Assembly: GCA_963843975.1 (NCBI GenBank)
Contig: CAWJMG010000003.1
Location: 1,050,001-1,082,000 of the forward strand
Source of the DNA: an uncultured Actinomycetes bacterium
GTDB lineage: Bacteria > Actinomycetota > Actinomycetes > S36-B12 > CAIYMF01
DNA length: 32,000 nt
Reading direction: 5' to 3'
A program made the position numbers and the translations under genes. The notes below the pieces were generated by a model. That model had not been told where the DNA came from, ran no database searches, and worked only from the letters and a program-made list of their open reading frames with translations. Below, in pieces: positions 8,331 through 32,000 of this stretch; within the stretch, counting starts at the first letter, position 1, and each line of letters opens with the position of its first letter.

Positions 8331-9357
8331 TCAGCCGAAGAACGGCCGGGCCTCCTCGTAGCGCTCGAGCGGGACGGTCTTGAGGACGCCGGTCGCCTCG
8401 ATGAAGGGCACCCGCACGATCGCCGTGCTCTGCAGCGCGACCATCTTGCCGAAGTCCTTCGCCGCGATGGCGTCGACGGCCGAGAGGCCGAAGCGGGTCG
8501 CGAGGACGCGGTCGAACGCGGTCGGCGTGCCACCGCGCTGGATGTGGCCGAGCACGACGGCGCGGGCCTCCTTGCCGGTGCGGGCCTCGAGGCCCGAGGC
8601 CAGCCAGTCGCCGATGCCGGAGAGGCGCACGTGCCCGAAGGCGTCGAGCGACTGGTCCTTGGTGACCATCTCGCCGTCCGCGGGCAGCGCGCCCTCGGAG
8701 ACGACGATGATCGGCGAGTAGTTGGTCTGGAACCGGCTCTCGACCCAGCCCACGACCTCGTCGAGGTGGAACGGGACCTCGGGGATGAGGATGCCGTTGG
8801 CGCCGCCGGACATGCCGGCGTGCAGCGCGATCCAGCCGGCGTGCCGGCCCATGACCTCGACGACGAGCACACGGTGGTGCGACTCGGCAGTCGTGTGGAG
8901 GCGGTCGATAGCCTCGGACGCGATGTTCACGGCGGTGTCGAACCCGAACGTGTAGTCGGTCTCGCTGAGGTCGTTGTCGATCGTCTTGGGGACGCCGACC
9001 ACGGGAACGCCGAGCTCGTCGCAGCTTGGTCGCCACGCCGAGGGTGTCCTCGCCGCCGATGGCGATGAGGGCGTCGACGCCGGCGGCGTCCATGTTCGCC
9101 TTGATGCGGTCGACACCGCCCTCGATCTTGATGGGGTTGGTGCGGCTCGAGCCGAGGATCGTCCCGCCGCGCGGCAGGATGCCGCGGACCTGCGGGATGC
9201 CGAGCGGCATGGTGAGGCCCTCGAGGGGCCCCTTCCAGCCGTCCCGGTAGCCGACGAACTCGAAGCCGTACTCGGTGACGCCCTTGCGGACGGCCGCTCG
9301 GATGACTGCGTTCAGACCGGGGCAGTCGCCGCCACCGGTCAGCACACCGACGCGCAT
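8331..9357 (-). pseudogene. pfkA: 6-phosphofructokinase (PfkA family); one extra base at about 9021
   Basis: MRVGVLTGGGDCPGLNAVIRAAVRKG...ALIAIGGEDTLGVATKL lies in the frame of ORF 8290..9396. It then continues DELGVPVVGVPKTIDNDL...VMGRHAGWIALH...GHIQRGG in the frame of ORF 8331..9116. The L codon occupies 9024-9022 and the D codon 9020-9018, leaving base 9021 supernumerary. Confidence 0.88.
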
Positions 9358-9618
9358 GGTTCTCCTCATGCGGTTGGGGACAGGGATGGGAGGCATGACC
9401 GCACTGTCAACGCCTGACCTCCCCTATCCAACCGCACCGATGGCAGCGTGTGCACGCTCCCCCTCCGACCGGGCAGGAGACGTACGAGACACCCGGGCGG
9501 ACAGGGTGAACGACGGGACAGCGGGAGGTGCTCCACGCGTGCCCTCCGGCCGCGCTAGCGTGCGCGGCAGAGGGGGCCCGGGACCGCCGGCCCCACCGCC
9601 ACCCGGAGGTCCTCCCCC

Positions 9619-11106
9619 GTGAGCGTGCTCGCCCTGGATGCCGGCACGACCGGCGTCACCGCCCTCATCGTCTCGGCCGACGCGCAGATCGTGGCGCGCG
9701 GCTACTCGGAGTTCCCGCAGCACTTCCCGCACCGAGGGCTGGGTCGAGCACGAGCCGAGGGAGGTCTGGGAGGCCGCGCTCACCGCCGTGCGGGAAGCGC
9801 TCGAGATGCTCGGGCCGGACGGCGACCAGCCCACGGCGGTCGGCATCACGAACCAGCGCGAGACCGCCGTCCTCTGGGACCGCGAGACGCTCGGCTGCCC
9901 CGCGGCGAGCGATCGTGTGGCAGGACCGGCGTACGGCGGGCCTGTGCGACCAGCTGCCGCGAGGACGGCCACGAGCCGCGCGTCGCGGCCCTCACCGGGC
10001 TGCGGCTCGACGCGTACTTCACCGCGACCAAGCTGGCGTGGATCGCGCTCAACGAGCCGCACGTCTGGGCGAGCGTCACGGCCGGGCGCACGGCCGTCGG
10101 CACGGTCGACTCGTACCTCGTCGCTCGGATGACGCGCGGCCTGCACCACGTGACCGACGCGTCCAACGCCTCCCGCACGCTGCTCTACGACATCCACGCC
10201 GGCGCCTGGAGCCAGGAGCTGTGCGACGTCTTCCACGTGCCGATCGACGCGCTGCCGGAGGTGGTCCCGTCGTACGGCGTCATCGGCCGCACCGACCCGT
10301 CGACGTTCCTCGGCCTCGACCTGCCGATCGCGGGCATCGCCGGCGACCAGCAGGCGGCGCTGTTCGGCCAGGCCTGCTACGCCGTCGGCACGAGCAAGTG
10401 CACCTACGGCACAGGATCGTTCGTGCTGGTGAACACCGGTGCGCGCCCGGTGGCGTCCTCGACGGGCCTGCTCACGACGGTCGCGTGGCAGCACCCGGAC
10501 GGCCGGCTGGAGTACGCGCTCGAGGGCGCGGTGTTCGTCACGGGCGCCGCCGTCCAGTGGCTGCGCGACGGCCTGCAGATCGTGGCGAGCGCATCGGAGA
10601 CCGAGGCGATCGCGCGGTCGGTGCCCGACTCCGGTGGTGTGGTGTTCGTGCCGGCGCTGACCGGTCTCGGCGCTCCCGACTGGGATCCGCACGCGCGCGG
10701 CACGATCCTCGGGATCAGCCGCGGGACGACCCGCGCCCACATCGTGCGGGCCACGCTCGAGGCGATCGCGTGGGAGGTGCGCGACGTCGTCGACCTCATG
10801 GTCCGCGAGGGCGGCCTCGAGCTCGCCGAGCTGGCGGTGGACGGCGGCGCCTCGGCGAACGGGTTCCTCTGCCAGCTGCAGTCGGACGCCCTTCAGGTGC
10901 CCGTCGCCCGGGCCGCCCAGCTCGAGACGACGGGCCTCGGGGCGGCGTTCCTCGCCGGCCTCGCGACCGGCGTGTGGGCGAGCCAGGACGAGATCGCGAC
11001 GACGGTCAAGCGGGACGCCCGGTTCGAGCCGGGGCCGCGGGACGACCGCGCCCACCGCCGTTGGCGCGTCGCGGTCGACCGCAGCAAGTCCTGGGCGACC
11101 CTCTAG
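9619..11106 (+). pseudogene. glpK: Glycerol kinase; three local frame changes (about 9733, 9908-9911, 9957) that sum to zero
   Basis: Conserved GlpK sequence hops between frames. It reads MSVLALDAGTTGVTALIV...PQHFPH in frame 0, then EGWVEHEPREVWEAAL...GITNQRETAVLWDRETLGCPAA in frame +1. It continues AIVWQDRRTAGLCDQL in frame +2, then REDGHEPRVAALTGLRLDAYFTATKLAW...GDQQAALFGQ...YGTGSFVL...DGGAS back in frame 0. Confidence 0.9.
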
Positions 11107-13710: not shown

Positions 13711-15144
13711 TCAGCCCGGCAGGGGGACGAAGCGGATCGACTTGGTGATCTGCCCGATCGCGGTCTGGAAGATCCGCGAGAACTCAGAGCCCGTGGCTGC
13801 GCAGAAGTAGAAGTCGCCGTCGGAGTTCTCGGCGGTGCGTCCGGCCGCGGTCGTGCAGTTCGTGTCGGCGCGGCTCGGGTTGCCCGAGGTGTCGGGCGAG
13901 GCGGCCTCGGCCAGGTAGGTGTTGGCGCTGCCGCTGCCGGTGCAGTTCTGGCTGATCGCGTCCCCGAAACCCACCGTCACGATGAGGATTCCCTGCGCCT
14001 TGGCGTTGGTGGCGACGGTGCGGAAGTTGTTGCACGCCGTCGTCGTGTTGGTGGATCCGACGTCGCCTGCGGTCGCGAGGGCAGTGGTGCCCGGGTCGTT
14101 GCCCTCGTTCGGGATTCCGTCGGTCTCGAAGATGATGACCTTGCGCGGGGTGCCGACCCGGTTGGGAAGGCTCGCGATGTTGTTGGCGGTGTCCCAGGGC
14201 GAGGTCGGTCCGAGCAGGAATCGCGCGCCCGCCTTCATGGGCGAGGCGAGGTCGGTGCCGCTGCCCGAGGCCGGGAGGCAGCTCAGGCCCTTCTGGAAGA
14301 TGCCCGTGCTGCTCTGGTAGTCGTTCGAGAAGCGCACCGGGATCCAGGTGGCCCCCGGTGTGGTCGAGCTGCCGGCGTCGTCGGTGGAGCACGCCGACGT
14401 GGGCAGGCTCTTGCCGATCGTGCCGAGGGCGACGTACTGCGACGCCGGGTCCATGGTGTTCACCATGCCCTTGATCGCCGCAACCATGGAGTTGCGGTCG
14501 GTCGTGGACATCGATCCCGTGCGGTCACCGATCACCAGCACGTCGAGCGGGTTGGGCGACGACTCGCCGCAGGAGCCCTTGCACGCGATCGAGGCGGTGG
14601 CGCCGGTCTGGCCCGACCCGATGCCGATCGCGGGCGCGAACGAGAACGGAACGTTCTTGTCGGCGACGGCCCGGATGGTGTTGCAGGTGGTGCCGTTGAT
14701 GCTGGCGTCGCAGGGGATCGCGCACCGCGAGGTGTTGCACACCAGGCCCGGGTAGCGCACTGCGTTGTACGGCGCTGCTCCGGGGCTGCAGGTGCTCGGG
14801 ATCTGCGTGGTGTCGACGGTCTTCGCAGCACCGGTCGAGGCGACGATGCACCAGAAGTCGATCGTGAGGCCGTTGGCCGGCGTGACGCTCGAGTCGGCGG
14901 CTGCCGCGAAGGCGAGAGCCTGCGCGCGGGCTGCAGTGGGGTCGGCGGGCAGCTCGTACGCGCCGGCCTGGGCCGCGGTGTCGAGCGTGTTCTGGAGGTT
15001 CTGCCGCTCGTAGGTGAGCTTGGCGACGTCGATCGCGAGGGCAGCGGCGCCGAACAGCGCCACGGCGAGGACGGCGACCAGGACCGCGACGGCGCCGCTC
15101 TCGCGGTCGGCGGTGATCGCGTGGCGGATGCGTCGGATGATCAC
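13711..15144 (-). CDS. tadG: TadG-like Flp-pilus pseudopilin/adhesin with vWA domain, Cys-rich
   Basis: The gene has a GTG start. The N-terminal TadE/G-like segment reads ESGAVAVLVAVLAVALFGAAALAIDVAKLTYERQNLQNTLDTAAQAGA. A vWA-like core carries LDVLVIGDRTGSMS (a MIDAS-type DxTxS) and KVIIFETDGIPN. I count 14 Cys. The product is Thr/Ser/Asn/Gly-rich. Confidence 0.8.
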   Translation of the reverse strand: MIIRRIRHAITADRESGAVAVLVAVLAVALFGAAALAIDVAKLTYERQNLQNTLDTAAQAGAYELPADPTAARAQALAFAAAADSSVTPANGLTIDFWCIVASTGAAKTVDTTQIPSTCSPGAAPYNAVRYPGLVCNTSRCAIPCDASINGTTCNTIRAVADKNVPFSFAPAIGIGSGQTGATASIACKGSCGESSPNPLDVLVIGDRTGSMSTTDRNSMVAAIKGMVNTMDPASQYVALGTIGKSLPTSACSTDDAGSSTTPGATWIPVRFSNDYQSSTGIFQKGLSCLPASGSGTDLASPMKAGARFLLGPTSPWDTANNIASLPNRVGTPRKVIIFETDGIPNEGNDPGTTALATAGDVGSTNTTTACNNFRTVATNAKAQGILIVTVGFGDAISQNCTGSGSANTYLAEAASPDTSGNPSRADTNCTTAAGRTAENSDGDFYFCAATGSEFSRIFQTAIGQITKSIRFVPLPG

Positions 15145-15148
15145 GGCG

Positions 15149-15622
15149 TCACTCGATCCGCATCTGCGACGAGCGGTTGATCGTGAGATCGCCCCCGAAG
15201 CCGCCGCCGACGAAGGTGATCCACTTGTAGGTGTACGTGACGGTGACGATCACGGTGCCGCCCGAGGTCGCGCCGGTGGCGTACGACGTGCAGTTGGCAC
15301 CGGCGGGCGTCTTGCAGGCCACGGTGACCGTGTTGCCCGGGAGGGTCGAGGCAGCCGAGGCCACCTGGGCACGGATCTGGGCCTCGCTGCCGCCGAGGCT
15401 GCCGACGCGCGCGCCCTCGCGCGCGGCGTTGGCGGCCACGATGCGGGCGTTGATCGCAAGGCCGAAGTCGATGATGCCGAAGACGAGCAGGAACAGCAGC
15501 GGCGCGACGAGGGCGAACTCGACGGCGGCGGCGCCGGAGTCCGAGCGCAGGCGCGACAGCCTGCGGCGCGGCGCCGCAGCAGCGGCGCGGCGGCTCGCGC
15601 GCGGCCCGGTCGTCCGGAGCAT
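15149..15622 (-). CDS. tadE: TadE-like pseudopilin
   Basis: The 157-aa product has a basic N-terminus followed by the TadE motif SGAAAVEFALVAPLLFLLVFGIIDFGLA. It ends 4 nt upstream of the tadG-like start. Confidence 0.85.
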   Translation of the reverse strand: MLRTTGPRASRRAAAAAPRRRLSRLRSDSGAAAVEFALVAPLLFLLVFGIIDFGLAINARIVAANAAREGARVGSLGGSEAQIRAQVASAASTLPGNTVTVACKTPAGANCTSYATGATSGGTVIVTVTYTYKWITFVGGGFGGDLTINRSSQMRIE

Positions 15623-20955: not shown

Positions 20956-22749
20956 ATGCGCGAGCACCACGAACCGGCCCTCGTCCCCGTCACCCGCTCG
21001 GCCCGGCTCACCGACGACGTCGTGCGCAACGCGGCCGAGGCACCGGCCGCGATCGCCCTCGCCCGCCGTGTGGGCGGCACCTGGGTCGACGTCACCGCCG
21101 CCCGCTTCGCCGAGGAGGTCGGGGCCGTGGCCCGCGGCCTCATCGCGACGGGCGTCCAGCCGGGCGACCGCGTCGGGATCATGAGCCGCACGCGGTACGA
21201 GTGGACCGTCACCGACTACGCCGTGTGGTGGGCGGGCGGCGTCGTCGTCCCGATCTACGAGACCAGCTCCGCCGAGCAGGTCTCGTGGATCCTCTCGGAC
21301 TCCGGAGCCGTCGCGGTCTTCCTCGAGAGCCCACGGCACGTCGACGTGTTCGCCGAGGTCTCCGACGGGCTCCCGGGCGTCCGCGACGTCTACGTCTTCG
21401 ACGACGGCGCCCTCGACACGCTGGCCTCGCAGGGCAGCGGGATCGCCGACGACGAGCTCGAGGCACGACGCACCTCGCGGGGGCCGAACGACCTCGCCAC
21501 GATCATCTACACCTCCGGCACGACCGGCCGCCCCAAGGGCTGCGAGCTCACCCACGAGAACTTCGCGTTCGAGGCCGAGAACGTCGTGGCCGCAACGCCC
21601 GAGGTCTTCAAGCAGCCGGGTGCCTCGACCCTGCTGTTCCTCCCCCTGGCCCACGTCTTCGGCCGGATCATCCAGATCGCCTGCATCCACGGCCGCGTCA
21701 CCCTCGGGCACGCGCCCGACCCCACCAAGCTCACCGAGGACCTCCCCGGCTTCCGGCCGACGTTCCTCCTCGCCGTTCCGCGCGTGTTCGAGAAGGTGTT
21801 CAACGGCGCGCAGCAGAAGGCGATCGCCGCGGGCAAGGGCTCGATCTTCGACAAGGCGGCGCACACCGCCGAGGAGTACAGCCGCGCGCTCGACGCCGGC
21901 TCGGTGGGCATCGGCCTGCGCCTGCGCCACTCGGTGTTCGACCGGCTCGTCTACGGCAAGCTGCGCACCGCGCTCGGCGGCCGCGTCGCCTGGGCGGTGT
22001 CCGGCGGCGCCCCGCTCGGCGACCGCCTCGGCCACTTCTTCCGCGGGATCGGCGTCACGATCCTCGAGGGCTACGGCCTCACCGAGACCGCGGGCGCGAC
22101 CACCGTGAACCGGCCGACGATGCTGCGGGTCGGATCGGTCGGACGGCCGTTCCCCGGCGCGGGCGTGGCCATCGCGGACGACGGCGAGGTGCTGCTGCGC
22201 GGTCCGCACGTCTTCACGGGCTACTTCAACAACCCGGCGGCCACCGCCGAGGTCATGACCGAGGACGGCTGGTTCCGCACCGGCGACCTCGGCGAGCTCG
22301 ACGCCGACGGCTACCTGTCCATCACGGGACGCAAGAAGGAGCTGCTGGTGACCGCCGGCGGTAAGAACGTCGCACCCGCCGTGCTCGAGGACCGGGTCCG
22401 CGCCCACTGGCTCGTGAGCCAGTGCATGGTCGTCGGTGACAACAAGCCCTACATCGGGGCGCTCATCACCCTCGACCCCGAGTCGCTGCCGGCGTGGGCC
22501 GCGCAGCACGGCAGGCCGGCAGGCACCGGCGCGGCCGAGCTCGCCGAGGACCCCGAGCTCCTCGCCGACCTGCAGGCAGCGGTGGACGAGGCCAACAAGG
22601 CGGTGTCCACGGCCGAGTCCATCCGCCGGTTCAAGGTCCTGCCCGTCGACTGGACCGAGGCGACGGGCGAGCTGACGCCGTCGATGAAGCTGCGCCGCGG
22701 CGTCGTCATGAAGGACTTCGGCACGGACGTCGAGGCGCTCTACTCCTAG
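20956..22749 (+). CDS. Long-chain fatty-acid--CoA ligase (AMP-dependent synthetase)
   Basis: The 597-aa product has an AGGAGG SD before its ATG. It carries the AMP-binding motifs IIYTSGTTGRPKGC, EGYGLTET and WFRTGDLGELDADGYLSITGRKKE. Confidence 0.9.
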   Translation: MREHHEPALVPVTRSARLTDDVVRNAAEAPAAIALARRVGGTWVDVTAARFAEEVGAVARGLIATGVQPGDRVGIMSRTRYEWTVTDYAVWWAGGVVVPIYETSSAEQVSWILSDSGAVAVFLESPRHVDVFAEVSDGLPGVRDVYVFDDGALDTLASQGSGIADDELEARRTSRGPNDLATIIYTSGTTGRPKGCELTHENFAFEAENVVAATPEVFKQPGASTLLFLPLAHVFGRIIQIACIHGRVTLGHAPDPTKLTEDLPGFRPTFLLAVPRVFEKVFNGAQQKAIAAGKGSIFDKAAHTAEEYSRALDAGSVGIGLRLRHSVFDRLVYGKLRTALGGRVAWAVSGGAPLGDRLGHFFRGIGVTILEGYGLTETAGATTVNRPTMLRVGSVGRPFPGAGVAIADDGEVLLRGPHVFTGYFNNPAATAEVMTEDGWFRTGDLGELDADGYLSITGRKKELLVTAGGKNVAPAVLEDRVRAHWLVSQCMVVGDNKPYIGALITLDPESLPAWAAQHGRPAGTGAAELAEDPELLADLQAAVDEANKAVSTAESIRRFKVLPVDWTEATGELTPSMKLRRGVVMKDFGTDVEALYS

Positions 22750-22761
22750 CCGGGCCTAGGC

Positions 22762-22799
22762 CGTACGGGCGGCGCTCGTCACGCCGCGTCGCCCGTACG
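22762..22799 (+). terminator. Long hairpin immediately after the acyl-CoA ligase stop
   Basis: CGTACGGGCG (22762-22771) pairs with CGCCCGTACG (22790-22799). The stem extends inward by a G-U pair plus 3 further pairs. It starts 13 nt after the TAG. There is no U-tract. Confidence 0.5.
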
Positions 22800-22847
22800 C
22801 CACAGGCTGACGCGCCGATCGGCCCGTCGCGGTGCAGGATTCTCCCT

Positions 22848-23570
22848 ATGACCGAGACGGGCGGCCAGCACGCGGCAGTGGACGTGCGAGGCCTGTCCGT
22901 CACCTTCGCCTCCGTCCACGCAGTCGACGGCCTCGACCTCCGTGTCCCGGCCGGCGGCGCCGTCGCCCTGGTCGGGCGCAACGGTGCGGGCAAGTCCACG
23001 ACTCTGCGCGTGCTCGGCGGCGTCCTGCCTCCCAGCGCCGGCACGGTCGTGGTGTCCGGCGTCGACGCCGTGCGCGAGCCGCGCCGCGCCCGCGAGGTCG
23101 TCGGCTACTGCCCCGACGTCGGCGGTCTCATCCCGCGCGCGACCCCCTGGGAGCACCTGCAGCTCGCCGCGCGGCTGCGCGGCATGGCCGCCTGGGAGGA
23201 TCGCGCCCGCGACCTGCTCGACCGGTTCGACCTCGCCGGGGCGGCCGACCGCGTGACGGCCGGCTTCTCCCACGGCATGGGGCGCCGGCTGTCGGTCCTG
23301 CTCGCCGCGTTCCACGAGCCCGGCGTGCTGCTGCTCGACGAGCCGTTCGACGGCGTCGACCCGCTCGGCGTCGAGGCCACGCTCGAGGAGATCCGCCGCG
23401 CCCGCATGCGCGGCGCCGCCGTCCTCGTGTCGACCCACCTGCTCGGGCTCGCCGTCCAGGCGTGCGAGGAGGCGGTGGTCCTCAGGGGCGGCAAGGTCGT
23501 CGCCGCAGCCCCTGCCTCCGACCTCGCCGGCGACGACGGCGCCGCGCGCTACCGGGCGCTGCTGTCGTGA
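22848..23570 (+). CDS. ABC transporter ATP-binding protein
   Basis: The ATG at 22848 lies within ORF 22494..23570. The product has Walker A GRNGAGKST, a degenerate signature FSHGMGRRL, Walker B LLLDEPFDGVD and the H-loop STH. Confidence 0.85.
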   Translation: MTETGGQHAAVDVRGLSVTFASVHAVDGLDLRVPAGGAVALVGRNGAGKSTTLRVLGGVLPPSAGTVVVSGVDAVREPRRAREVVGYCPDVGGLIPRATPWEHLQLAARLRGMAAWEDRARDLLDRFDLAGAADRVTAGFSHGMGRRLSVLLAAFHEPGVLLLDEPFDGVDPLGVEATLEEIRRARMRGAAVLVSTHLLGLAVQACEEAVVLRGGKVVAAAPASDLAGDDGAARYRALLS

Positions 23571-25129
23571 GCCGCGCCCAGGTCGGGCCGCTCTTCGCGC
23601 TGCGCTGGCGGATGATCCGCTCGCTGCGCGTCCAGACCGGCCTGGCCGTGCTCGGCGTCCTCGCGGTCGCGTTCATCGTGCTCGGCGTCGTGGGCGGCGC
23701 CGCCTCGCGCCTCGGCAGGGAGACCGCGTCCGACATCGGGCTCGGCGACCTCGGCGCCTCGATCGACCGCACCGGAGAGGTCGCGGCCCTGCTGCCCTCC
23801 GCGATGCTCGCGTTCGCGCTCCTGTGCATCGTCGCGCCGCTGGCTGCCGGCGGCGGCCAGAGCTGCGTCCCCGAGTCCCAGCTCGTCTCCTTCCCGGTGC
23901 GCATCGCCACGCTCGTGCGCGTCGGATTCCTGCTCTCGCCGTTGAACATCGCGTGGTACCTCCAAGTGCTGCTGCTCACCGCAGCCACCGGGTACGCCGT
24001 CCGCGGCGAGGGCGGCGCACTGCCCCCCGTCGGCGTGCTCGTGGCCTACCTGATCGCGTGCACCGCCGTCGGGCAGGCGCTCGGCTGGGGGATCGTCGGC
24101 GTACGCCGGACCAAGCGCGGGCGCCGCGGCACCTGGGCCCTGCTCGGCGTGCTGCTCGCGATCGGCGGCTGGGTCATCGCGACCGACCGCGGATCCGTGC
24201 TGCTCGACAACTCGCCCACCCTGTCGGTCCTGGGCGCGCAGCTCCAGGCCGCGGCGCTCGTCCCCTCCGGCTTCGTACCGTTCGTGCTCGGGTGCCTGGT
24301 CGTGACCGCACTCGGCTACCTCGTCGCCGTCCGCGTCGCGGACTGGGCCCTGCGACGCCCCGGCGACCTCGGCGTCGACGGCCCGCTGTCCCGACCGGTC
24401 GAGCGCCGAGCGTTCGAGTCCGGGCCGACGGCGTACCGCATGCTCGTCCAGGTCGACCGCGCCTCGCTGTGGCGCTCGCCGCCGCTCCGCCGCGGTCTGC
24501 TCGTGCTCGGCGTGCTGCCGGTGGCCGCGGCCGCGCTCGCCTCGCTGCCCTGGTCGTCCATCGCCCTGCTTCCGCCGCTCGTCGCCTCCGGCGCCGCGCT
24601 GCTGTTCGGCGTCAACGCGATGTGCCTGGACGGCTCGGGGTCGCTGTGGATCGCAACGCTCCCTCACGACCCTGACGACGTCCTGCGCAGCAAGGCCCGC
24701 GTCGTGGCCGAGGTGTGCTCGCTCCCCGTCGTCCTCGTGCTCGTGGGTGCGGGCCTGCGCGCCAGCTCGCCCCCGGACCTCGTCGACCTCGTCTGCGCGC
24801 TCGGGGCTGCGGTGAGCTGCACGGCGCTGGTGGTCGCGACAGCGATGCGGCTCTCGGTCACGCGCCCGCACCGGGCCGACCTGCGCGGACCCCGCGACAC
24901 GCCCGCACCACCCGGCACCATGGCGGTGTACTCCGCCCGCCTCGCCGTGGTCACCACCCTGGTCGGCCTCGGGTTCTCGGCGGCCACGTTCGGCCGCACG
25001 GTCGTCCCCCCGCTGCTGCTCACCGTCGGCATCCTCGCCTGGGCGGCGTACTCCTGGAGCCGCACGAAGCGGCGCTGGGCAGACCCCGTCGTGCGCGCCC
25101 ATGTGGTGGCGACGGTGGCCGCCGGATAG
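23567..25129 (+). CDS. ABC transporter permease-like polytopic membrane protein
   Basis: A GTGA start/stop overlap with the ATPase gene lies at 23567-23570. The 520-aa product has many hydrophobic segments (LAVLGVLAVAFIVLGVV, LLCIVAPLAAGG, WALLGVLLAIGGWVIA and others). Confidence 0.7.
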   Translation: MSRAQVGPLFALRWRMIRSLRVQTGLAVLGVLAVAFIVLGVVGGAASRLGRETASDIGLGDLGASIDRTGEVAALLPSAMLAFALLCIVAPLAAGGGQSCVPESQLVSFPVRIATLVRVGFLLSPLNIAWYLQVLLLTAATGYAVRGEGGALPPVGVLVAYLIACTAVGQALGWGIVGVRRTKRGRRGTWALLGVLLAIGGWVIATDRGSVLLDNSPTLSVLGAQLQAAALVPSGFVPFVLGCLVVTALGYLVAVRVADWALRRPGDLGVDGPLSRPVERRAFESGPTAYRMLVQVDRASLWRSPPLRRGLLVLGVLPVAAAALASLPWSSIALLPPLVASGAALLFGVNAMCLDGSGSLWIATLPHDPDDVLRSKARVVAEVCSLPVVLVLVGAGLRASSPPDLVDLVCALGAAVSCTALVVATAMRLSVTRPHRADLRGPRDTPAPPGTMAVYSARLAVVTTLVGLGFSAATFGRTVVPPLLLTVGILAWAAYSWSRTKRRWADPVVRAHVVATVAAG

Positions 25130-25265: not shown

Positions 25266-25397
25266 CACCGGTGGCGACGACCGCTACCGTACGTGCGGGG
25301 TCATCGTGAGGGTGATGGCACCCGCCAGGGGGGTCGTCGGACCACCCCGGGCGTCCGCAGAGCCGCGCACGTCGTGGTCAGACCGCGAGAGGTCCTC

Positions 25398-26117
25398 ATG
25401 GGTCGTCGCACGATTCTGCTCATCGCCGCACTGCTGGCAGCAGTGCTCGGCGTGGTGCTGGTCTTCCTCTACGCCCAGAACGCCGAGAAGATCGCCCAGG
25501 AGGGCCAGGCCCTCGTCAAGGTGATCGTCGCCAAGTCGGAGATCGCCGCCGGCACCACGGGTGCTGCCGCCTCCAGCGCAGGCGCGTTCGAGGAGAAGGA
25601 GATCCCGGCGAACACCCAGGTGCAGGGCGTGCTGTCCGACGCCGCACCTCTCCAGGAGCTCGTCTCGCTCGTGACCATCTACCCCGGGCAGCAGATCATC
25701 GCCCAGCAGTGGGGCTCCGCCGGTCAGCTGACCCGCCTGCCGCTGCCCAAGGGCAAGGTCGCGCTCTCCCTCGAGCTCGGTGACCCGCAGCGCGTCGCCG
25801 GCTTCGTCTCGCCCGGCTCGACGGTCGCGATCTTCGCCACCGGCGGCCCTCAGATCCGCACGCTCCTCGCCAACATCACCGTGATCGGCGTCGGTGCGAC
25901 CGGCCTCAACGCCGCGCCGAACCAGAACGGCGACCAGCAGGCGTCGTCCGCGATCCTCACGCTCGCCGTCACCCAGGCCGAGGCCGAGAAGATCATCTAC
26001 GCCCAGGGCCTCGCGGCGGACCCGACCTACAACGGCCTCTACTTCGCCCTGATGGACGAGAACTCCGACGTCACGCCGGCCGACCCGGGTGTCGACGACA
26101 CCAACCTGTTCCGCTGA
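25398..26117 (+). CDS. cpaB: Flp pilus assembly protein CpaB/RcpC-like
   Basis: The ATG at 25398 lies within ORF 25293..26117. The product has the N-terminal anchor RRTILLIAALLAAVLGVVLVFLY and a SAF-like segment KVIVAKSEIAAGT. It also carries the CpaB C-domain VALSLELGDPQRVAGFVSPGSTVAIFAT...ILTLAVTQAEAEKIIYA. Confidence 0.8.
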   Translation: MGRRTILLIAALLAAVLGVVLVFLYAQNAEKIAQEGQALVKVIVAKSEIAAGTTGAAASSAGAFEEKEIPANTQVQGVLSDAAPLQELVSLVTIYPGQQIIAQQWGSAGQLTRLPLPKGKVALSLELGDPQRVAGFVSPGSTVAIFATGGPQIRTLLANITVIGVGATGLNAAPNQNGDQQASSAILTLAVTQAEAEKIIYAQGLAADPTYNGLYFALMDENSDVTPADPGVDDTNLFR

Positions 26118-26168: not shown

Positions 26169-27366
26169 ATGACCGCGATCGTCGAGTTCGACCCGACGGG
26201 CGTCGAGGCAATCAAGGGCGCGCTCAGCTCTGACGCGCTCGTCCTTCCGAGCCTCGACGTCCTCAGGGCGCACCTCGACACGAACCCGTTCGAGGACTGC
26301 ATCGTCCTGGGGCCGAGCGTCGACCAGCAGGACGTCTTCGCCCTGGCGGAGACGCTGCGGGTCAGCCGGCCGAGCCTGGGCGTCGTGATGGTGCGCCGCC
26401 GCATCGACACCGCGATCCTGTCCGACGCCCTGCGCGCCGGCGTGCGCGAGGTCGTGCAGGAGCGCGACCTCGCCGGCCTCGCGGGGGCCGTACGCCGTCA
26501 GCGCGACATCGCGGGCCGCCTGCGCGAGCAGATGGAGCGCGGCGACGACTACGTCGACCAGCAGGCGCGCGGCCGTGTCGTCACCGTGTTCTCGGCGAAG
26601 GGCGGCTGCGGCAAGACCACGCTGGCCACCAACATCGCCACCTCGATCGCCATCAGCGGCAAGGGTACGGTCGCCCTGCTCGACCTCGACCTCGCCTTCG
26701 GCGATGTCGCGATCGCGCTGCAGCTCTTCCCCACGCACACGATCGGCGACGCGGTCGCGATCGGCGAGGAGCTCGACGGTGAGGCCGTCCGCTCGCTGAT
26801 GACGCCGCACCGCCAGCGGTGTCCAGGCGCTCGTCGCCCCGATGGAGCCGAGCACCGCCGACACCATCAGCGTGGGCCTCGTGACGCGGGTGATCGACGT
26901 CCTGCGCACGGAGTTCGACTACGTCGTCATCGACACCCCGCCCGCCCTCGACGACAACGTGCTGGCTGCCTTCGACCGGAGCGACATGGTCGCCCTGCTC
27001 GCCACGCTCGACATCCCGGCGCTCAAGAACCTCAAGCTCACGCTCGAGACGCTCGACCTCATCGGGTACTCGCGCGAGAAGCTGCGCATCGTCCTCAACC
27101 GCGCCGACTCCAAGGTGGGTCTCGCGCTGTCCGAGGTGGAGAAGACGCTCAAGGCGCCGATCGTGGCGCAGATCCCGTCGAGCCGGGACGTCCCGGCCTC
27201 GACCAACCGCGGTGTCGCCATCGTCGTCGACGAGCCGAAGAACCCCGTGAGCCTCGCCATCAAGGCCTTCGTCGACGAGCACGTGCTGGTGGCCCCGAGC
27301 AGCGATGACGCGATCCCCGCCCAGATGCGAGCAGACAGGCGCTCCGGGCGTCTGTGGAGGAGGTAG
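26169..27366 (+). pseudogene. tadZ: TadZ/CpaE-type ParA/MinD-like ATPase with N-terminal receiver-like domain; one extra base near 26811-26814
   Basis: Frame A runs to ...VVTVFSAKGGCGKTTLATNIA...ALLDLDLAFGDVA...RSLMTPH(R). The sequence then continues SGVQALVAPMEPSTAD...YVVIDTPPALDD...IVLNRAD...IPSSRDVPAS in the frame of ORF 26842..27366. Frame B has a TGA at 26800-26802, so the shift must lie between 26803 and 26815. Confidence 0.85.
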
Positions 27367-27368
27367 CA

Positions 27369-28751
<1,383 letters not shown>

Positions 28752-28754
28752 TCC

Positions 28755-30728
28755 ATGCGTGGTGGTTCAACTCGTCGGCGCCTGGCGCGCGCGGCCGCAG
28801 CGGCGGTCGCGCTGCTGGCGGCCGTCACTGTCGCCGGTCCGGCGTCGGCGACGACCACCCCGGTCACCGGACGCATCGACGGCTTCAGCCCGAACCCCGA
28901 CGGCACGCTGACGATCGGCTTCTCCGCGCTCGGTCTCCCCGCGGGCCAGACGCTCGACCCGAACTCGGTCAAGGTCACGATCGGCGGCTCGGACGTCGAC
29001 TCCCAGGCGATCCCGGCCTCGCAGGCCACCGCGCTGCCCAAGCGGGTCACCGTCCTGACCATCGACACCAGCGGCAGCATGGCGGCGCAGGGGTTCGCCG
29101 AGCCGGCGAAGGCCGCTGCTCGCGCCTACCTGGCCGGCGTGCCGGCCGACGTCCTGGTGGGGCTCGTCTCGTTCAACTCCACGCCCCGGATCGTCGTGGA
29201 GCCCACCGCCGACCACGCCGCGGTCTCCACGGCGCTCGACACCCTCGAGTTCAAGGGCGGCACCGCACTCTTCGACGCTGTCATCCAGGCCGACCGTCTC
29301 CTCGGCACCGACGGCATCCGCAGTCAGCTCCTGCTCTCGGACGGCAAGGACGTCGACTCCGCCAACACCGAGGCCAAGGCAGTCGCATCGCTGGCGTCCT
29401 CCGGCGTCACGCTGGACGCCGTGGCCCTGGGGCCGCAGGTCGACTCCGCCCAGCTGAACGCTCTCGCAGCGGCGGGCGGCGGCGGCGTCGTCGTGCCGGC
29501 CACGGACACCCAGCAGCTCACGGCCGCGTTCGAGGCCGCGGCGCTCGCGCAGGCAGGTGCTGTCGCCGTGACCGCGCAGGTGCCCGAGGCGATGCGCGGA
29601 ACGTCGGTCAACGTCACGGTCACGGCGGACGCCGGCGGCACGCAGGTCACCGACGACGCGCTCTACGTCCTCCCCGGCGCCGGTGCAGTCCCCTCGGCCG
29701 ACCCGACCGAGGCCTACGGCCCGGTGCCGGTCGCGCCCGCAGACCCTGGCATCTTCGGCAAGAGCTGGCTGCTGCCGGTCGCGCTCGGCGCGCTCGGGGT
29801 CGGCCTGTTCGCCCTGCTCGGTGTCGCGTTCCTCTCGACCGACCGCGACTCGCAGACCTCGGGTCGCCTGCGCCGCCGCCTGTCGCGCTACTCGCTCACA
29901 CCGCGCGCCGAGGAGGAGTCCGGCTCGGGCGTCGCCAGGTCCGCCGTCGAGTTCGCCGGCCGCATGGTCGAGCGACGCGACATCGACGGCGCCCTCGCCC
30001 TCAAGCTGGAGGCCGCCGGCGTGCCGCTGCGTCCCGCGGAGTGGCTGCTGATCCACATCGGCGTCGCCGTGGCGCTCGCCGTCCTCTTCACGCTGCTGTC
30101 GGGCTTCAACATCATCGCCACGTTCATCGGCCTCGTGATCGGGCTGCTCCTGCCCTATGCGTACATCGCGATCAAGGACGAGCGCCGCAAGGCCCGGTTC
30201 GCCGCGCAGCTGCCCGACACCCTGCAACTCCTCTCGGGCTCGCTGGCAGCCGGATACTCGCTGCCGCAGGCGATCGACACCGTGGTCCGCGAGTCCGACG
30301 GCCCGATGGCTGCCGAGCTCAACCGCGCGATCGTCGAGGCCCGCCTCGGCGTCCCGATCGAGGACGCGCTCGACACCGTCGCGCGCCGCATGAACTCGGT
30401 CGACTTCGCCTGGGTCGTCATGGCCATCCGCATCCAGCGGGAGGTGGGCGGCAACCTCGCCGAGGTGCTGAGCAGCGTCGCCGCCACCATGCGCGAGCGC
30501 GAGCGGCTCCGCCGGCAGGTGGACGTGCTCTCCGCCGAGGGTCGCCTCTCGGCCGTCATCCTCACGCTGCTGCCGATCCTGTTCATCGTGTACCTGGTCA
30601 TCGCACGCCCGGAATACCTGAGCGTGCTCTACCAGACGCCGATCGGCCTGCTGATGATCGTGGTCGGCATCATCCTGCTGATCGGTGGCTCGTTCTGGCT
30701 GCGCAAGGTCGTCAAGGTGGAGGTCTGA
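28755..30728 (+). CDS. tadB: Fusion protein: signal peptide + vWA/MIDAS domain + TadB (GspF-family) inner-membrane platform
   Basis: A single uninterrupted 657-codon frame encodes all parts. The signal peptide is RRRLARAAAAAVALLAAVTVAGPASA/TTT. The MIDAS motif VTVLTIDTSGSM falls at aa 104-108 (nt 29064-29078), followed by LVSFNS and LLLSDGKD strands. After an Ala/Pro linker comes the TM WLLPVALGALGVGLFALLGVAFL, then GspF-like LPDTLQLLSGSLAAGYSLPQAI...FAWVVMAIRIQREVGGNLAEVL and the C-terminal TMs. Confidence 0.8.
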   Translation: MRGGSTRRRLARAAAAAVALLAAVTVAGPASATTTPVTGRIDGFSPNPDGTLTIGFSALGLPAGQTLDPNSVKVTIGGSDVDSQAIPASQATALPKRVTVLTIDTSGSMAAQGFAEPAKAAARAYLAGVPADVLVGLVSFNSTPRIVVEPTADHAAVSTALDTLEFKGGTALFDAVIQADRLLGTDGIRSQLLLSDGKDVDSANTEAKAVASLASSGVTLDAVALGPQVDSAQLNALAAAGGGGVVVPATDTQQLTAAFEAAALAQAGAVAVTAQVPEAMRGTSVNVTVTADAGGTQVTDDALYVLPGAGAVPSADPTEAYGPVPVAPADPGIFGKSWLLPVALGALGVGLFALLGVAFLSTDRDSQTSGRLRRRLSRYSLTPRAEEESGSGVARSAVEFAGRMVERRDIDGALALKLEAAGVPLRPAEWLLIHIGVAVALAVLFTLLSGFNIIATFIGLVIGLLLPYAYIAIKDERRKARFAAQLPDTLQLLSGSLAAGYSLPQAIDTVVRESDGPMAAELNRAIVEARLGVPIEDALDTVARRMNSVDFAWVVMAIRIQREVGGNLAEVLSSVAATMRERERLRRQVDVLSAEGRLSAVILTLLPILFIVYLVIARPEYLSVLYQTPIGLLMIVVGIILLIGGSFWLRKVVKVEV

Positions 30729-30729
30729 C

Positions 30730-31659
30730 ATGAGCTCCGTCTTCCTCTGGGCCGGTCTCGCGGCCGTGTTCTTCGGGATCATCGGCGTCTTCTTCGCCTT
30801 CGCCGGCAGGAGCGAGCCGACGGGTGTCGCACGATCGCTCGCGGCGGTCGAGGCCATCAAGGCGGCGCCCGCGGGCATGCGCCAGGACCTCGACCGTCCG
30901 TTCGGCGAGCGCGTCGGCGAGCCGTTCTTCAACTGGCTCACCCGTCTCGGCCGCCGCTTCACCCCGAGCGACCAGACCGCGCGCATGCGTCGCAAGCTCG
31001 ACCTCGCGGGCAACCCGCCCGGGTGGGACAGCGACCGCATCGTGGCGTTCAAGATGCTCGGCCTGATCGTGGGCGGCTCGCTCGGCGTCGTGCTGCCGCT
31101 GCTCGCGGGCAGCGTCCTGTGGGCGATCATCCTCGGCATCGGCCTCGCCGTGCTCGGGTTCTACGCCCCGAACATCATCCTGTACCAGGCTGCGTACAAC
31201 CGGTCCGAGCGCATCCTCAAGGAGCTGCCGGACGCGCTCGACCTCCTGGTCATCTCCGTGGAGTCCGGCCTCGGGTTCGACGCCGCGCTCTCCCAGGTGG
31301 CCCGCAACACCCAGGGCCCGCTCGCGGACGAGTTCTTCCGCGTGCTGCAGGAGATGCAGCTCGGCACCTCGCGCTCGGACTCCATGCGGGCCCTCGCCGA
31401 CCGCACCGACGTCTCGGACCTGCGCGGCTTCATCACCGCGATGGTGCAGGCCGACTCCTTCGGAATCCCGGTCGCGAACGTGCTGCGCATCCAGGCCCGC
31501 GAGATGCGCACCCGACGCTCGCAGCGTGCCGAGGAGTCGGCTCAGAAGGTGCCGGTGAAGATCCTGTTCCCGCTGATCTTCTGCATCCTTCCGGTCCTCT
31601 TCATCGCGATCCTCGGCCCCGCCGTCATCCAGATCGCGAACGCCTTCAGCGGCGTGTAG
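30730..31659 (+). CDS. tadC: TadC (GspF-family) inner-membrane platform protein
   Basis: The ATG lies 1 nt after the tadB stop. The product reads LPDALDLLVISVESGLGFDAALSQVA...RGFITAMVQADSFGIPVANVLRIQAREMR...VKILFPLIFCILPVLFIAILGP. Confidence 0.88.
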   Translation: MSSVFLWAGLAAVFFGIIGVFFAFAGRSEPTGVARSLAAVEAIKAAPAGMRQDLDRPFGERVGEPFFNWLTRLGRRFTPSDQTARMRRKLDLAGNPPGWDSDRIVAFKMLGLIVGGSLGVVLPLLAGSVLWAIILGIGLAVLGFYAPNIILYQAAYNRSERILKELPDALDLLVISVESGLGFDAALSQVARNTQGPLADEFFRVLQEMQLGTSRSDSMRALADRTDVSDLRGFITAMVQADSFGIPVANVLRIQAREMRTRRSQRAEESAQKVPVKILFPLIFCILPVLFIAILGPAVIQIANAFSGV

Positions 31660-31662
31660 CCG

Positions 31663-32000
31663 CTACTCGACGTAGAGCCGGGCGTCGACAAGCTGCTCCT
31701 TCACGAGCTCGCCGCCGCGCTCGTAGCGCGCCTGCTCGAACCGCTTGCGGAACTCGAGGTCGATGCCCGCGAGCCCGCCGCGGTTCTTCTCGATCGAGAG
31801 CACGGCGAACTGGTGGAAGCGCTCGACGTTCGCCGCTCCGTAGACCAGGTGGTGCCGTGCGACGACGTCGTACTTCTCGTTGAGCACGAGGACGACGTCG
31901 GCCTCGTAGGCGAGGCTCGAGGCGCCGCGGAGGTTCTGCGTGCGCAGGCGCTTGCCGTCGCTGATGCCGGCGGCATCGCTCGCCGAGATCGCCATCACCG
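31663..32000 (-). CDS. DnaB-like/RecA-fold ATPase, C-terminal fragment (5' part outside the window)
   Basis: ...NLRGASSLAYEADVVLVLNEKYD...FAVLSIEKNRGGLAGIDLEFRKRFEQARYE resembles the C-terminal end of DnaB-type helicase or KaiC/RadA-like ATPase domains. The gene is convergent with tadC; the two stops are 3 nt apart. Confidence 0.5.
   Translation of the reverse strand, partial: VMAISASDAAGISDGKRLRTQNLRGASSLAYEADVVLVLNEKYDVVARHHLVYGAANVERFHQFAVLSIEKNRGGLAGIDLEFRKRFEQARYERGGELVKEQLVDARLYVE

Follow-up and report, generated by a model that had tools for sequence, protein, structure and literature searches.

A tad operon with an extended tadB gene

We analyzed a stretch of 32,000 nucleotides (the window) from an uncultured Actinomycetes bacterium (contig CAWJMG010000003.1, positions 1,050,001 to 1,082,000). 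The window carries an operon for a Tad/Flp pilus machine in the order cpaB-tadZ-tadA-(vWA-tadB)-tadC. The tadB gene of this operon encodes a protein of 657 amino acids (aa), here called vWA-TadB, which serves a monoderm actinobacterial Tad/Flp pilus machine as its TadB platform subunit and carries an N-terminal extension. This extension consists of a predicted Sec signal peptide, a module of ~270 aa that combines a beta-sandwich with a vWA (von Willebrand factor A) domain and holds an intact metal-ion-dependent adhesion site (MIDAS), and a tether of ~30 aa. The protein is a member of both the T2SSF/TadB family and the vWA/MIDAS superfamily. The coordinates of the gene, its parts and the other Tad genes are collected in Table 1.

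Table 1. Position and basis of assignment of the vWA-tadB gene, its predicted parts and further Tad genes in the window
Feature	Position	Strand	Basis
vWA-TadB fusion gene (657 aa)	28755..30728	+	single coding frame; VWA and T2SSF Pfam matches; >100 full-length homologues
Predicted signal peptide of Sec type, aa 1-32 (n-region with RRR, core of Ala/Leu/Val, ASA|T)	28755..28850	+	hydropathy, charge; heuristic
N-terminal beta-strand segment of the ectodomain, aa 38-95	28866..29039	+	AlphaFold2 strands 38-46, 51-59, 73-87; pLDDT ~90
vWA domain, aa 96-268	29040..29558	+	Pfam, Foldseek and PDB profile matches
MIDAS D104, S106, S108	29064-29078	+	conserved motif
MIDAS T170	29262-29264	+	conserved motif
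MIDAS D196	29340-29342	+	conserved motif
C-terminal beta-strand segment of the ectodomain, aa 269-306	29559..29672	+	AlphaFold2 strands 270-275, 284-293, 296-305; pLDDT >90
Pro/Ala/Gly/Ser-rich flexible tether, aa 307-336	29673..29762	+	pLDDT <50
TM1, aa 337-361, out to in	29763..29837	+	hydropathy; matches the first TM of unfused actinobacterial TadB
TadB core after TM1, with basic cytoplasmic segment, hairpin of TM2-3 (aa 430-472), T2SSF (aa 490-615), TM4 and TM5	29838..30728	+	
cpaB/rcpC homologue, first operon gene	25293..26117	+	PF16976 RcpC, E 1.2e-14; syntenic in all related loci except L007
tadZ/cpaE-like ParA/MinD ATPase gene, frameshifted	26169..27366	+	Pfam ParA, CbiA and TadZ_N over two open reading frames
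tadA/cpaF secretion ATPase gene	27354..28751	+	T2SSE, E 1.7e-63; TIGR03819 TadA family, E 2e-100
tadC paralogous platform gene	30730..31659	+	T2SSF, E 2.4e-22; weak DUF5936 match; hydropathy
TadE-like pseudopilin gene	15149..15622	-	PF07811 TadE, E 2.1e-18; N-terminal G/AAAVEF motif
TadG-like gene, pilin-like TadE/G N-terminus and vWA-like domain (DRTGS)	13711..15144	-	PF13400 Tad, E 1.6e-7

Domain anatomy and predicted topology of vWA-TadB

Three vWA families of Pfam matched aa 99-259, all above their gathering cut-offs: VWA_2 (E 1.4e-11, 45.4 bits, cut-off 27), VWA (E 4.4e-10, 40.5 bits, cut-off 23.8) and VWA_3 (E 1.1e-6, 29.3 bits, cut-off 27). The T2SSF match (PF00482, aa 490-615) reached an E value of 5.1e-21 and 75.4 bits against a cut-off of 25.2, and it covers positions 2-124 of the 125 profile positions. 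An earlier sequence-only reading of this DNA had proposed a protein of four parts, namely signal peptide, vWA region, transmembrane (TM) segment and GspF-type domain, and this make-up was recovered by Pfam, hydropathy, structure prediction and Foldseek. The motifs that it had quoted as vWA hallmarks are indeed elements of a MIDAS. The signature DxS/TxS/T...T...D is complete, with D104, S106 and S108 in DTSGS, T170 in a GGT motif and D196 in SDG. The vWA region had been put at about 300 aa, and here only part of the description stood. A vWA domain is present, but it is ~170 aa long and flanked by beta strands (aa 38-87 and 270-305) and followed by the disordered tether of ~30 aa.

An AlphaFold2 model was built from a family alignment of 56 sequences. 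Its mean predicted local distance difference test (pLDDT) score was 84.7, with most of the ectodomain above 90. In the model, strands at aa 38-87 precede a Rossmann-type alpha/beta vWA domain (aa 97-267), which is followed by further strands (aa 270-305), a disordered tether (aa 306-336) and an all-helical membrane/T2SSF half. The vWA domain is thus predicted to adopt the Rossmann-like alpha/beta fold. Foldseek comparison with the PDB returned the vWF A3 domain, BatB and 4jdu at target-normalized TM-scores of 0.70-0.76 and root-mean-square deviations (rmsd) of 2.5-3.6 Å. The longest alignments, with 310-350 columns over the vWA domain and its beta flanks, were obtained for ArnB (8s05, E 3e-11), the Catenulispora vWA protein 4fx5 and ITIH1 (6fpy); Streptococcus sanguinis PilB (7ba2) was also among the matches. 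A sequence profile search of the PDB led to the membrane-spanning vWA protein 4rck (2e-22), BatB (1e-14), ArnB and CLCA1, and gave no T2SSF match at E values up to 1e-3.

The predicted signal peptide contains five Arg residues. Its pattern of a basic n-region, a hydrophobic h-region of 10-16 residues and an AxA motif, called heuristically, is seen here and in 53 of 56 homologues (conservation was counted throughout in 56 aligned family members, down to 29% identity), the AxA motif itself being found in 53 of the 56. Export by the Tat pathway was considered and ruled out, since a Tat-like motif occurs in just 5/56 members and TIGR01409 gave no match. If the signal were an uncleaved anchor, the ectodomain would have the same outside location. 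The ectodomain (aa 33-336) is acidic, with 14 Lys and Arg against 30 Asp and Glu, and D68 in its N-terminal beta segment is kept in 51 of the 56 sequences. The tether measures 19-37 aa across the family (median 29), a conserved length, and at full extension it spans about 10 nm. Directly before TM1 the disordered tether holds a semi-conserved GPxPV...PGIFG...W motif in the closer half of the family, which may serve in binding or at the membrane interface.

Downstream of TM1 follow the basic cytoplasmic segment (aa 362-428, with RLRRRLSRY), the TM2-3 hairpin, the T2SSF domain and, by hydropathy, TM4 (aa 598-617) and TM5 (aa 629-649). Hydropathy, charge bias and the AlphaFold2 helices agree on a predicted five-TM topology with a cytoplasmic T2SSF domain. 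This is consistent with the topology first suggested for the protein, in which the vWA domain lies outside, the TM segment leads inward and RLRRRLSRY is cytoplasmic. A Pfam scan for the pilin-like families PF13400 and PF07811 gave no match in the fusion protein at E values up to 0.01, and Pfam recognized no LysM, SH3b, PG_binding or OmpA-like wall-binding domain.

The fusion gene is read in a single frame

Since the assembly contains indels, we considered whether an indel or a gene-calling error had fused a separate secreted vWA gene with an ordinary tadB. The assembly is in general prone to indels. The tadZ gene carries one extra C at ~26813 (CACCGCCAGCGG versus CACCG-CAGCGG in the related loci L001, L002 and L005). 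Internal changes of the coding frame were also found in the glycerol-kinase (FGGY) gene glpK (window 9540-9900, plus strand), where the Pfam match begins at profile position 107, and in the phosphofructokinase gene pfk (window ~9050-9100, minus strand), where it begins at position 113. The sequence-only reading had warned of such indels, and these three genes bear out the warning. The extra C in tadZ is either an assembly indel or a genuine pseudogene mutation; in the latter case the Tad system of this strain may be mislocalized or inactive.

In a genome of ~72% GC, the GC content at third codon positions (GC3) is a sensitive marker of the coding frame, and the GC3 plot does pick up the true frame switches in tadZ, glpK and pfk of the same window. 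Over the fusion gene, GC3 of the coding frame stayed at 0.88-1.00 in each 120-nucleotide segment from 28780 to 30640, and no frame switch was seen at the junction at 29.6-29.9 kb. The uninterrupted frame of 657 codons claimed earlier is therefore a single GC3 frame from end to end. It opens with an ATG 3 nucleotides past the tadA stop, with GGAG ~10 nucleotides 5' of that ATG, and the tadC ATG follows 1 nucleotide past the tadB stop, where the GC3 frame switches at ~30700.

The gene is equally intact in its relatives. Ectodomain and core were contiguous and in one frame by tblastn in Longivirga aurantiaca (Sporichthyales) and in two metagenome-assembled genomes (MAGs), and isolate genomes hold it as one gene call between tadA and tadC (Nocardioides sp. 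SOB77, 633 aa; Actinoplanes sp. NPDC051346, 646 aa). A split of the reading frame, named at the outset as a possible outcome, was not found, neither as a stop nor as a frameshift. One related locus, L008, has VWA and tadB as separate gene calls and could favor the artefact explanation. However, this split is itself a frameshift artefact rather than a natural arrangement: the GPxPV-TM1 segment is in another frame than the final strands of the ectodomain, and in that assembly tadA and tadC are broken as well. More than 100 clusters, as well as isolate genomes, show the same colinear fusion, and the search with the ectodomain gave no stand-alone version. Because of the single frame, the colinear orthologues and the isolate genomes, the fusion gene is not an assembly artefact; that explanation is effectively refuted.

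A family of fused TadB proteins in Actinomycetota

A search with the full protein gave 112 matches, almost all of 620-690 aa with VWA and T2SSF Pfam domains and 32-78% identity. The fusion is kept in >100 homologues of ~650 aa, with identity falling to 29-32%. The architecture is not a one-off but that of a large family of fusions across Actinomycetota. Besides the genera named above, carriers include Aquipuribacter (Micrococcales), Nanopelagicales and Mycobacteriales MAGs, Acidimicrobiia MAGs and Egibacteraceae (Nitriliruptoria). Three proteins of 889-899 aa from Egibacteraceae and metagenomes (P0229, P0247 and P0250) have two vWA matches before a complete TadB core, so that the ectodomain was duplicated in some lineages. 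Databases give these proteins no more than generic names ("type II secretion system F family protein", "tight adherence protein B", "VWA domain-containing protein").

When the ectodomain alone was used to query 1.84 billion representatives exhaustively with HMMER, 64 matches were obtained at E values up to 1e-30. The TadB core is present in 109 of the 150 top-ranking representatives (clusters at 50% identity) and essentially complete in 101 of these 109 (median length 650 aa). Most of the other 41 look truncated or frameshifted and a few are very large unrelated vWA proteins; no stand-alone ectodomain was apparent among these 41. The ectodomain is found almost only fused to TadB, and its function is therefore likely tied to the platform.

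The MIDAS residues are strongly conserved. D104, S106 and S108 are invariant (56/56), T170 is kept in 54 and D196 in 53 sequences. Relatives share 48-69% identity in the ectodomain, 70-84% in the core and 85-94% in TadA. The ratio of nonsynonymous to synonymous substitution rates (dN/dS) relative to Longivirga (L005), the comparison on which we rely, was 0.30 over the vWA domain, 0.40 over the ectodomain as a whole and 0.16 over the TadB core. Ectodomain values of 0.6-0.8 were obtained against L001 and L002, where dS is compressed by a GC3 of 93-96%. The ratios relative to Longivirga point to purifying selection on the vWA module that is weaker than on the core.

Unfused TadB proteins and orthologues without the module

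The core shares 54-70% identity with unfused actinobacterial TadB proteins of 320-380 aa. These begin at the helix equivalent to TM1, followed by the RRRLSxY motif. The first TM of an unfused TadB is already N-out, and the module was therefore appended to an N-terminus that faces outward. In a neighbor-joining tree of TadB cores, fused and unfused entries were interleaved, and many of the "unfused" entries are contig-edge fragments or frameshifted calls.

Only two unfused orthologues, in L007 and L009, were confirmed by genomic context. Both loci show the synteny AMP-ligase, ABC ATPase, membrane protein, tadZ, tadA, tadB, tadC. The tadB of L007 (8001-8987, P0299) is without the vWA domain, and the locus is without cpaB. 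The tadB of L009 (8001-9143, P0378) has no vWA domain either; its signal peptide is retained, and TM1 is preceded by ~50 aa of Ala/Pro/Ser linker, apparently left over from a lost domain. Since syntenic orthologues without the module exist, the vWA module is accessory and varies between lineages.

Genomic context and the rest of the Tad system

Longivirga, Nocardioides, Actinoplanes and three to four MAGs share this operon context, and all related loci (L001-L011) have the order tadA, tadB, tadC with a paralogous single-T2SSF tadC. A Flp pilin gene (…EGASAVEYGLLVAAIAA…) is found in close relatives ~3.7 kb downstream of tadC (at ~16.5 kb in L001 and ~16.6 kb in both L002 and L005); the corresponding position would lie past the end of the window. 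In Nocardioides and in L007-L009, genes for a HisKA_3 kinase and a GerE-type response regulator separate tadC from one or two flp genes. The Nocardioides locus (L010, 12827-15686) has this pair and two flp genes after tadC. The position of the pair beside flp suggests a dedicated two-component control.

The TadE-like and TadG-like genes of the window lie ~10 kb upstream of the tad operon, adjoining a ROK kinase gene. The VWA match of the TadG-like gene (E 1.9e-4, 22.1 bits) falls just under the gathering score of 23.8. Judged by these domain matches, the system would have two vWA modules, one borne by a pilin-like protein and one by the platform. The Actinoplanes operon also holds flp, tadE and a tadG-like gene. 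We therefore rejected the idea that the fusion replaces TadG: the window has a TadG-like and a TadE-like gene, and the Actinoplanes operon has a PF13400 protein in addition to the fusion. The Tad-TadE-ROK adjacency recurs in L009.

Two further features flank the operon. An ABC ATPase gene (PF00005) and a gene for a membrane protein of ~509 aa without Pfam match occupy 22494-25129 on the plus strand, and such a pair is also found directly upstream of cpaB in L001, L002 and L005-L008. On the minus strand, a convergent gene follows tadC at 31663-31998. The visible 111-aa C-terminus of its product has no Pfam match, is 77-94% identical in all close relatives, and marks a conserved end of the operon in this clade.

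A proposed docking role for the vWA module

Following export and probable cleavage of the signal peptide, the vWA module would sit on the outer face of the cytoplasmic membrane, above the platform. Its tether would hold it within ~10 nm of the membrane, in the wall-proximal zone rather than at the cell surface. The published stoichiometry of TadA:TadB:TadC is 6:3:3, and three vWA copies would therefore surround the pilus exit. Published models further place a CpaB/RcpC ring around the pilus path, with minor pilins and the vWA protein CpaL atop the platform before assembly. The metal ion of the MIDAS would capture an acidic residue of a partner within the machine. This partner could be the priming or tip complex of TadE/TadG-like proteins, the Flp fiber at its base or the CpaB ring. 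In this way the nascent fiber may be docked, aligned or retained in an envelope that lacks a secretin. We favor such a docking role inside the machine and consider it somewhat more probable than all other functions together. It was the short tether of 19-37 aa that led us to prefer it over adhesion to external ligands.

Several points weigh against this docking role. The orthologues in L007 and L009 lack the module in the same synteny, which means that it is not essential for assembly. The presence of the fusion does not clearly correlate with the presence of CpaB or of a vWA domain on the TadG-like protein. Furthermore, dN of the ectodomain is ~3x that of the core, as is also seen in environment-facing domains. 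The partners named above are candidates, and cleavage of the signal peptide as well as topology are predicted from heuristics and AlphaFold2.

Rapid divergence of the ectodomain relative to the core would also suit a surface adhesin, in which the vWA/MIDAS binds an environmental or host ligand and turns the pilus base into a point of adhesion. Pilus-associated vWA/MIDAS domains in PilY1, PilC1, S. sanguinis PilB and SpaC do mediate adhesion. These known adhesive modules, however, sit on pilins or pilus tips, and the present genome has a candidate of this kind in the TadG-like gene. Actinobacterial walls are thicker than ~10 nm. Since the tether, whose length is conserved, reaches ~10 nm at most when fully extended, a vWA domain on a five-TM inner-membrane protein should not reach the surface, and we regard an adhesin as improbable. 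The module had at first been described as one for adhesion or protein binding; of these two, binding of a protein at the pilus base is the more likely, and adhesion with such a tether the less likely. The location in the wall-proximal zone would instead fit an anchor or stator, whose MIDAS binds peptidoglycan or an anionic glycopolymer and so fixes the platform, resists pulling and possibly stops rotation. Monoderm Tad machines are without secretin and PilMNO-type scaffold, their cohesion is an open question, and acidic wall polymers could in principle complete the MIDAS coordination. Yet Pfam recognized no wall-binding domain, and CpaB, the usual component for alignment and anchoring, is already encoded in the operon. 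MIDAS ligands characterized so far are mostly protein carboxylates. A wall anchor thus appears unlikely.

The module is covalently joined to the subunit that contacts the motor, and it might therefore act as a sensor across the membrane. Here the vWA domain would sense divalent cations, pilus load or a ligand on the outside; TM1 would relay the signal to TadA and the cytoplasmic domain of TadB and so bias extension versus retraction in a Tad system with a single motor. The vWA domains of PilY1 and CpaL have been proposed as mechanosensors, and TadA/CpaF is bifunctional with a switch that is not known. Against this, force or a conformational change would pass poorly through a disordered tether of ~30 aa (pLDDT <50), there are orthologues that lack the module, and the idea is purely inferential; we give it little credence. 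More speculative is a collar, in which three platform-tethered MIDAS domains grip the pilus base or the TadE/TadG-like priming complex. Being covalently joined to TadB, such a collar might make the single bifunctional TadA motor, and hence the choice between extension and retraction, depend on load or ligand state outside the membrane, or it might lock the platform to a static ring (CpaB or wall). We think this has a slim chance of being correct. If it were, the collar would be a monoderm-specific way of doing without secretin and PilMNO scaffold, and locking to a static ring would argue against rotating-platform models.

Platform proteins such as PilC, GspF, TadB and TadC are treated as membrane adaptors whose functional domains face the cytoplasm. 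For a platform protein it is surprising to bear on its outer face a conserved, selected domain of predicted metal-dependent binding, as TadB does in many Actinomycetota (the cultivable Nocardioides and Actinoplanes among them), yet this is a domain fusion in a system already known to use vWA modules. We regard vWA-TadB as a conserved variant of a known machine component, with a solid architecture and a mechanism that is inferred. How monoderm Tad machines cohere and guide their fiber without a secretin and a PilMNO scaffold has been raised as an open problem (PMC6916266). vWA-TadB gives a handle on this cohesion and on how outside events reach platform and motor. Comparative and genetic tests are straightforward because otherwise syntenic loci naturally differ in having no vWA domain, one or two. 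The finding also corrects the annotation of generically named proteins.

Comparison with known systems

With canonical TadB/CpaG proteins (Aggregatibacter TadB, Caulobacter CpaG and the unfused actinobacterial TadBs of 320-380 aa), vWA-TadB shares the T2SSF domain, the position between tadA and tadC, a predicted N-out TM1 with the basic RRRLSxY segment behind it, the hairpin of TM helices and the TMs at the C-terminus. In contrast to these proteins, it has a signal peptide, an ectodomain of ~270 aa and a tether before TM1. The literature searched describes no extracytoplasmic domain on a platform protein. As the sequence-only reading had supposed, the architecture appears not to have been described before: a literature search over 8 million full texts, which did not cover Kimura et al. 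(2019) on Actinoplanes zoospore pili, found no paper on a fusion of platform and vWA domain, and no curated NCBIfam model reaches its cut-off on the protein.

By profile and fold, the closest solved relatives of the vWA domain are BatA/BatB, 4rck, 3ibs and 4jdu (TM-score 0.70). Proteins of the BatA/BatB type differ from vWA-TadB in having neither a T2SSF domain nor a pilus context. They belong to Bat/MoxR-type operons. Among the scanned reading frames of the window there was no MoxR or Bat match, and the gene context of the fusion is the tad operon. ArnB of Sulfolobus, 4fx5 and ITIH1 resemble vWA-TadB in the combined vWA and beta-sandwich fold and not in the system to which they belong. Their rmsd of 10-12 Å indicates that the domains are arranged differently, and ArnB is a cytoplasmic, phosphorylation-dependent regulator of archaellum expression.

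Modules of the vWA kind are also associated with priming or tip complexes of type IV pili, as in PilY1/PilC of type IVa pili and in S. sanguinis PilB. These belong to another pilus class, are borne by the fiber and have documented roles in adhesion and mechanosensing outside the cell. Within Tad systems, TadG of Aggregatibacter and CpaL of Caulobacter likewise have their vWA domain, with its MIDAS motif, trans to the membrane, and CpaL has been modeled as sitting on the CpaG/CpaH platform before assembly. vWA-TadB is not of the TadG/CpaL type, since it has a predicted Sec-type signal in place of a class III, prepilin-peptidase-type one and no pilin-like module, which the gene at 13711-15144 on the minus strand of the window does have. 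A pilin-like helix anchors TadG and CpaL, which have been proposed to depart together with the pilus tip, whereas the vWA domain of vWA-TadB is covalently fixed to a five-TM platform.

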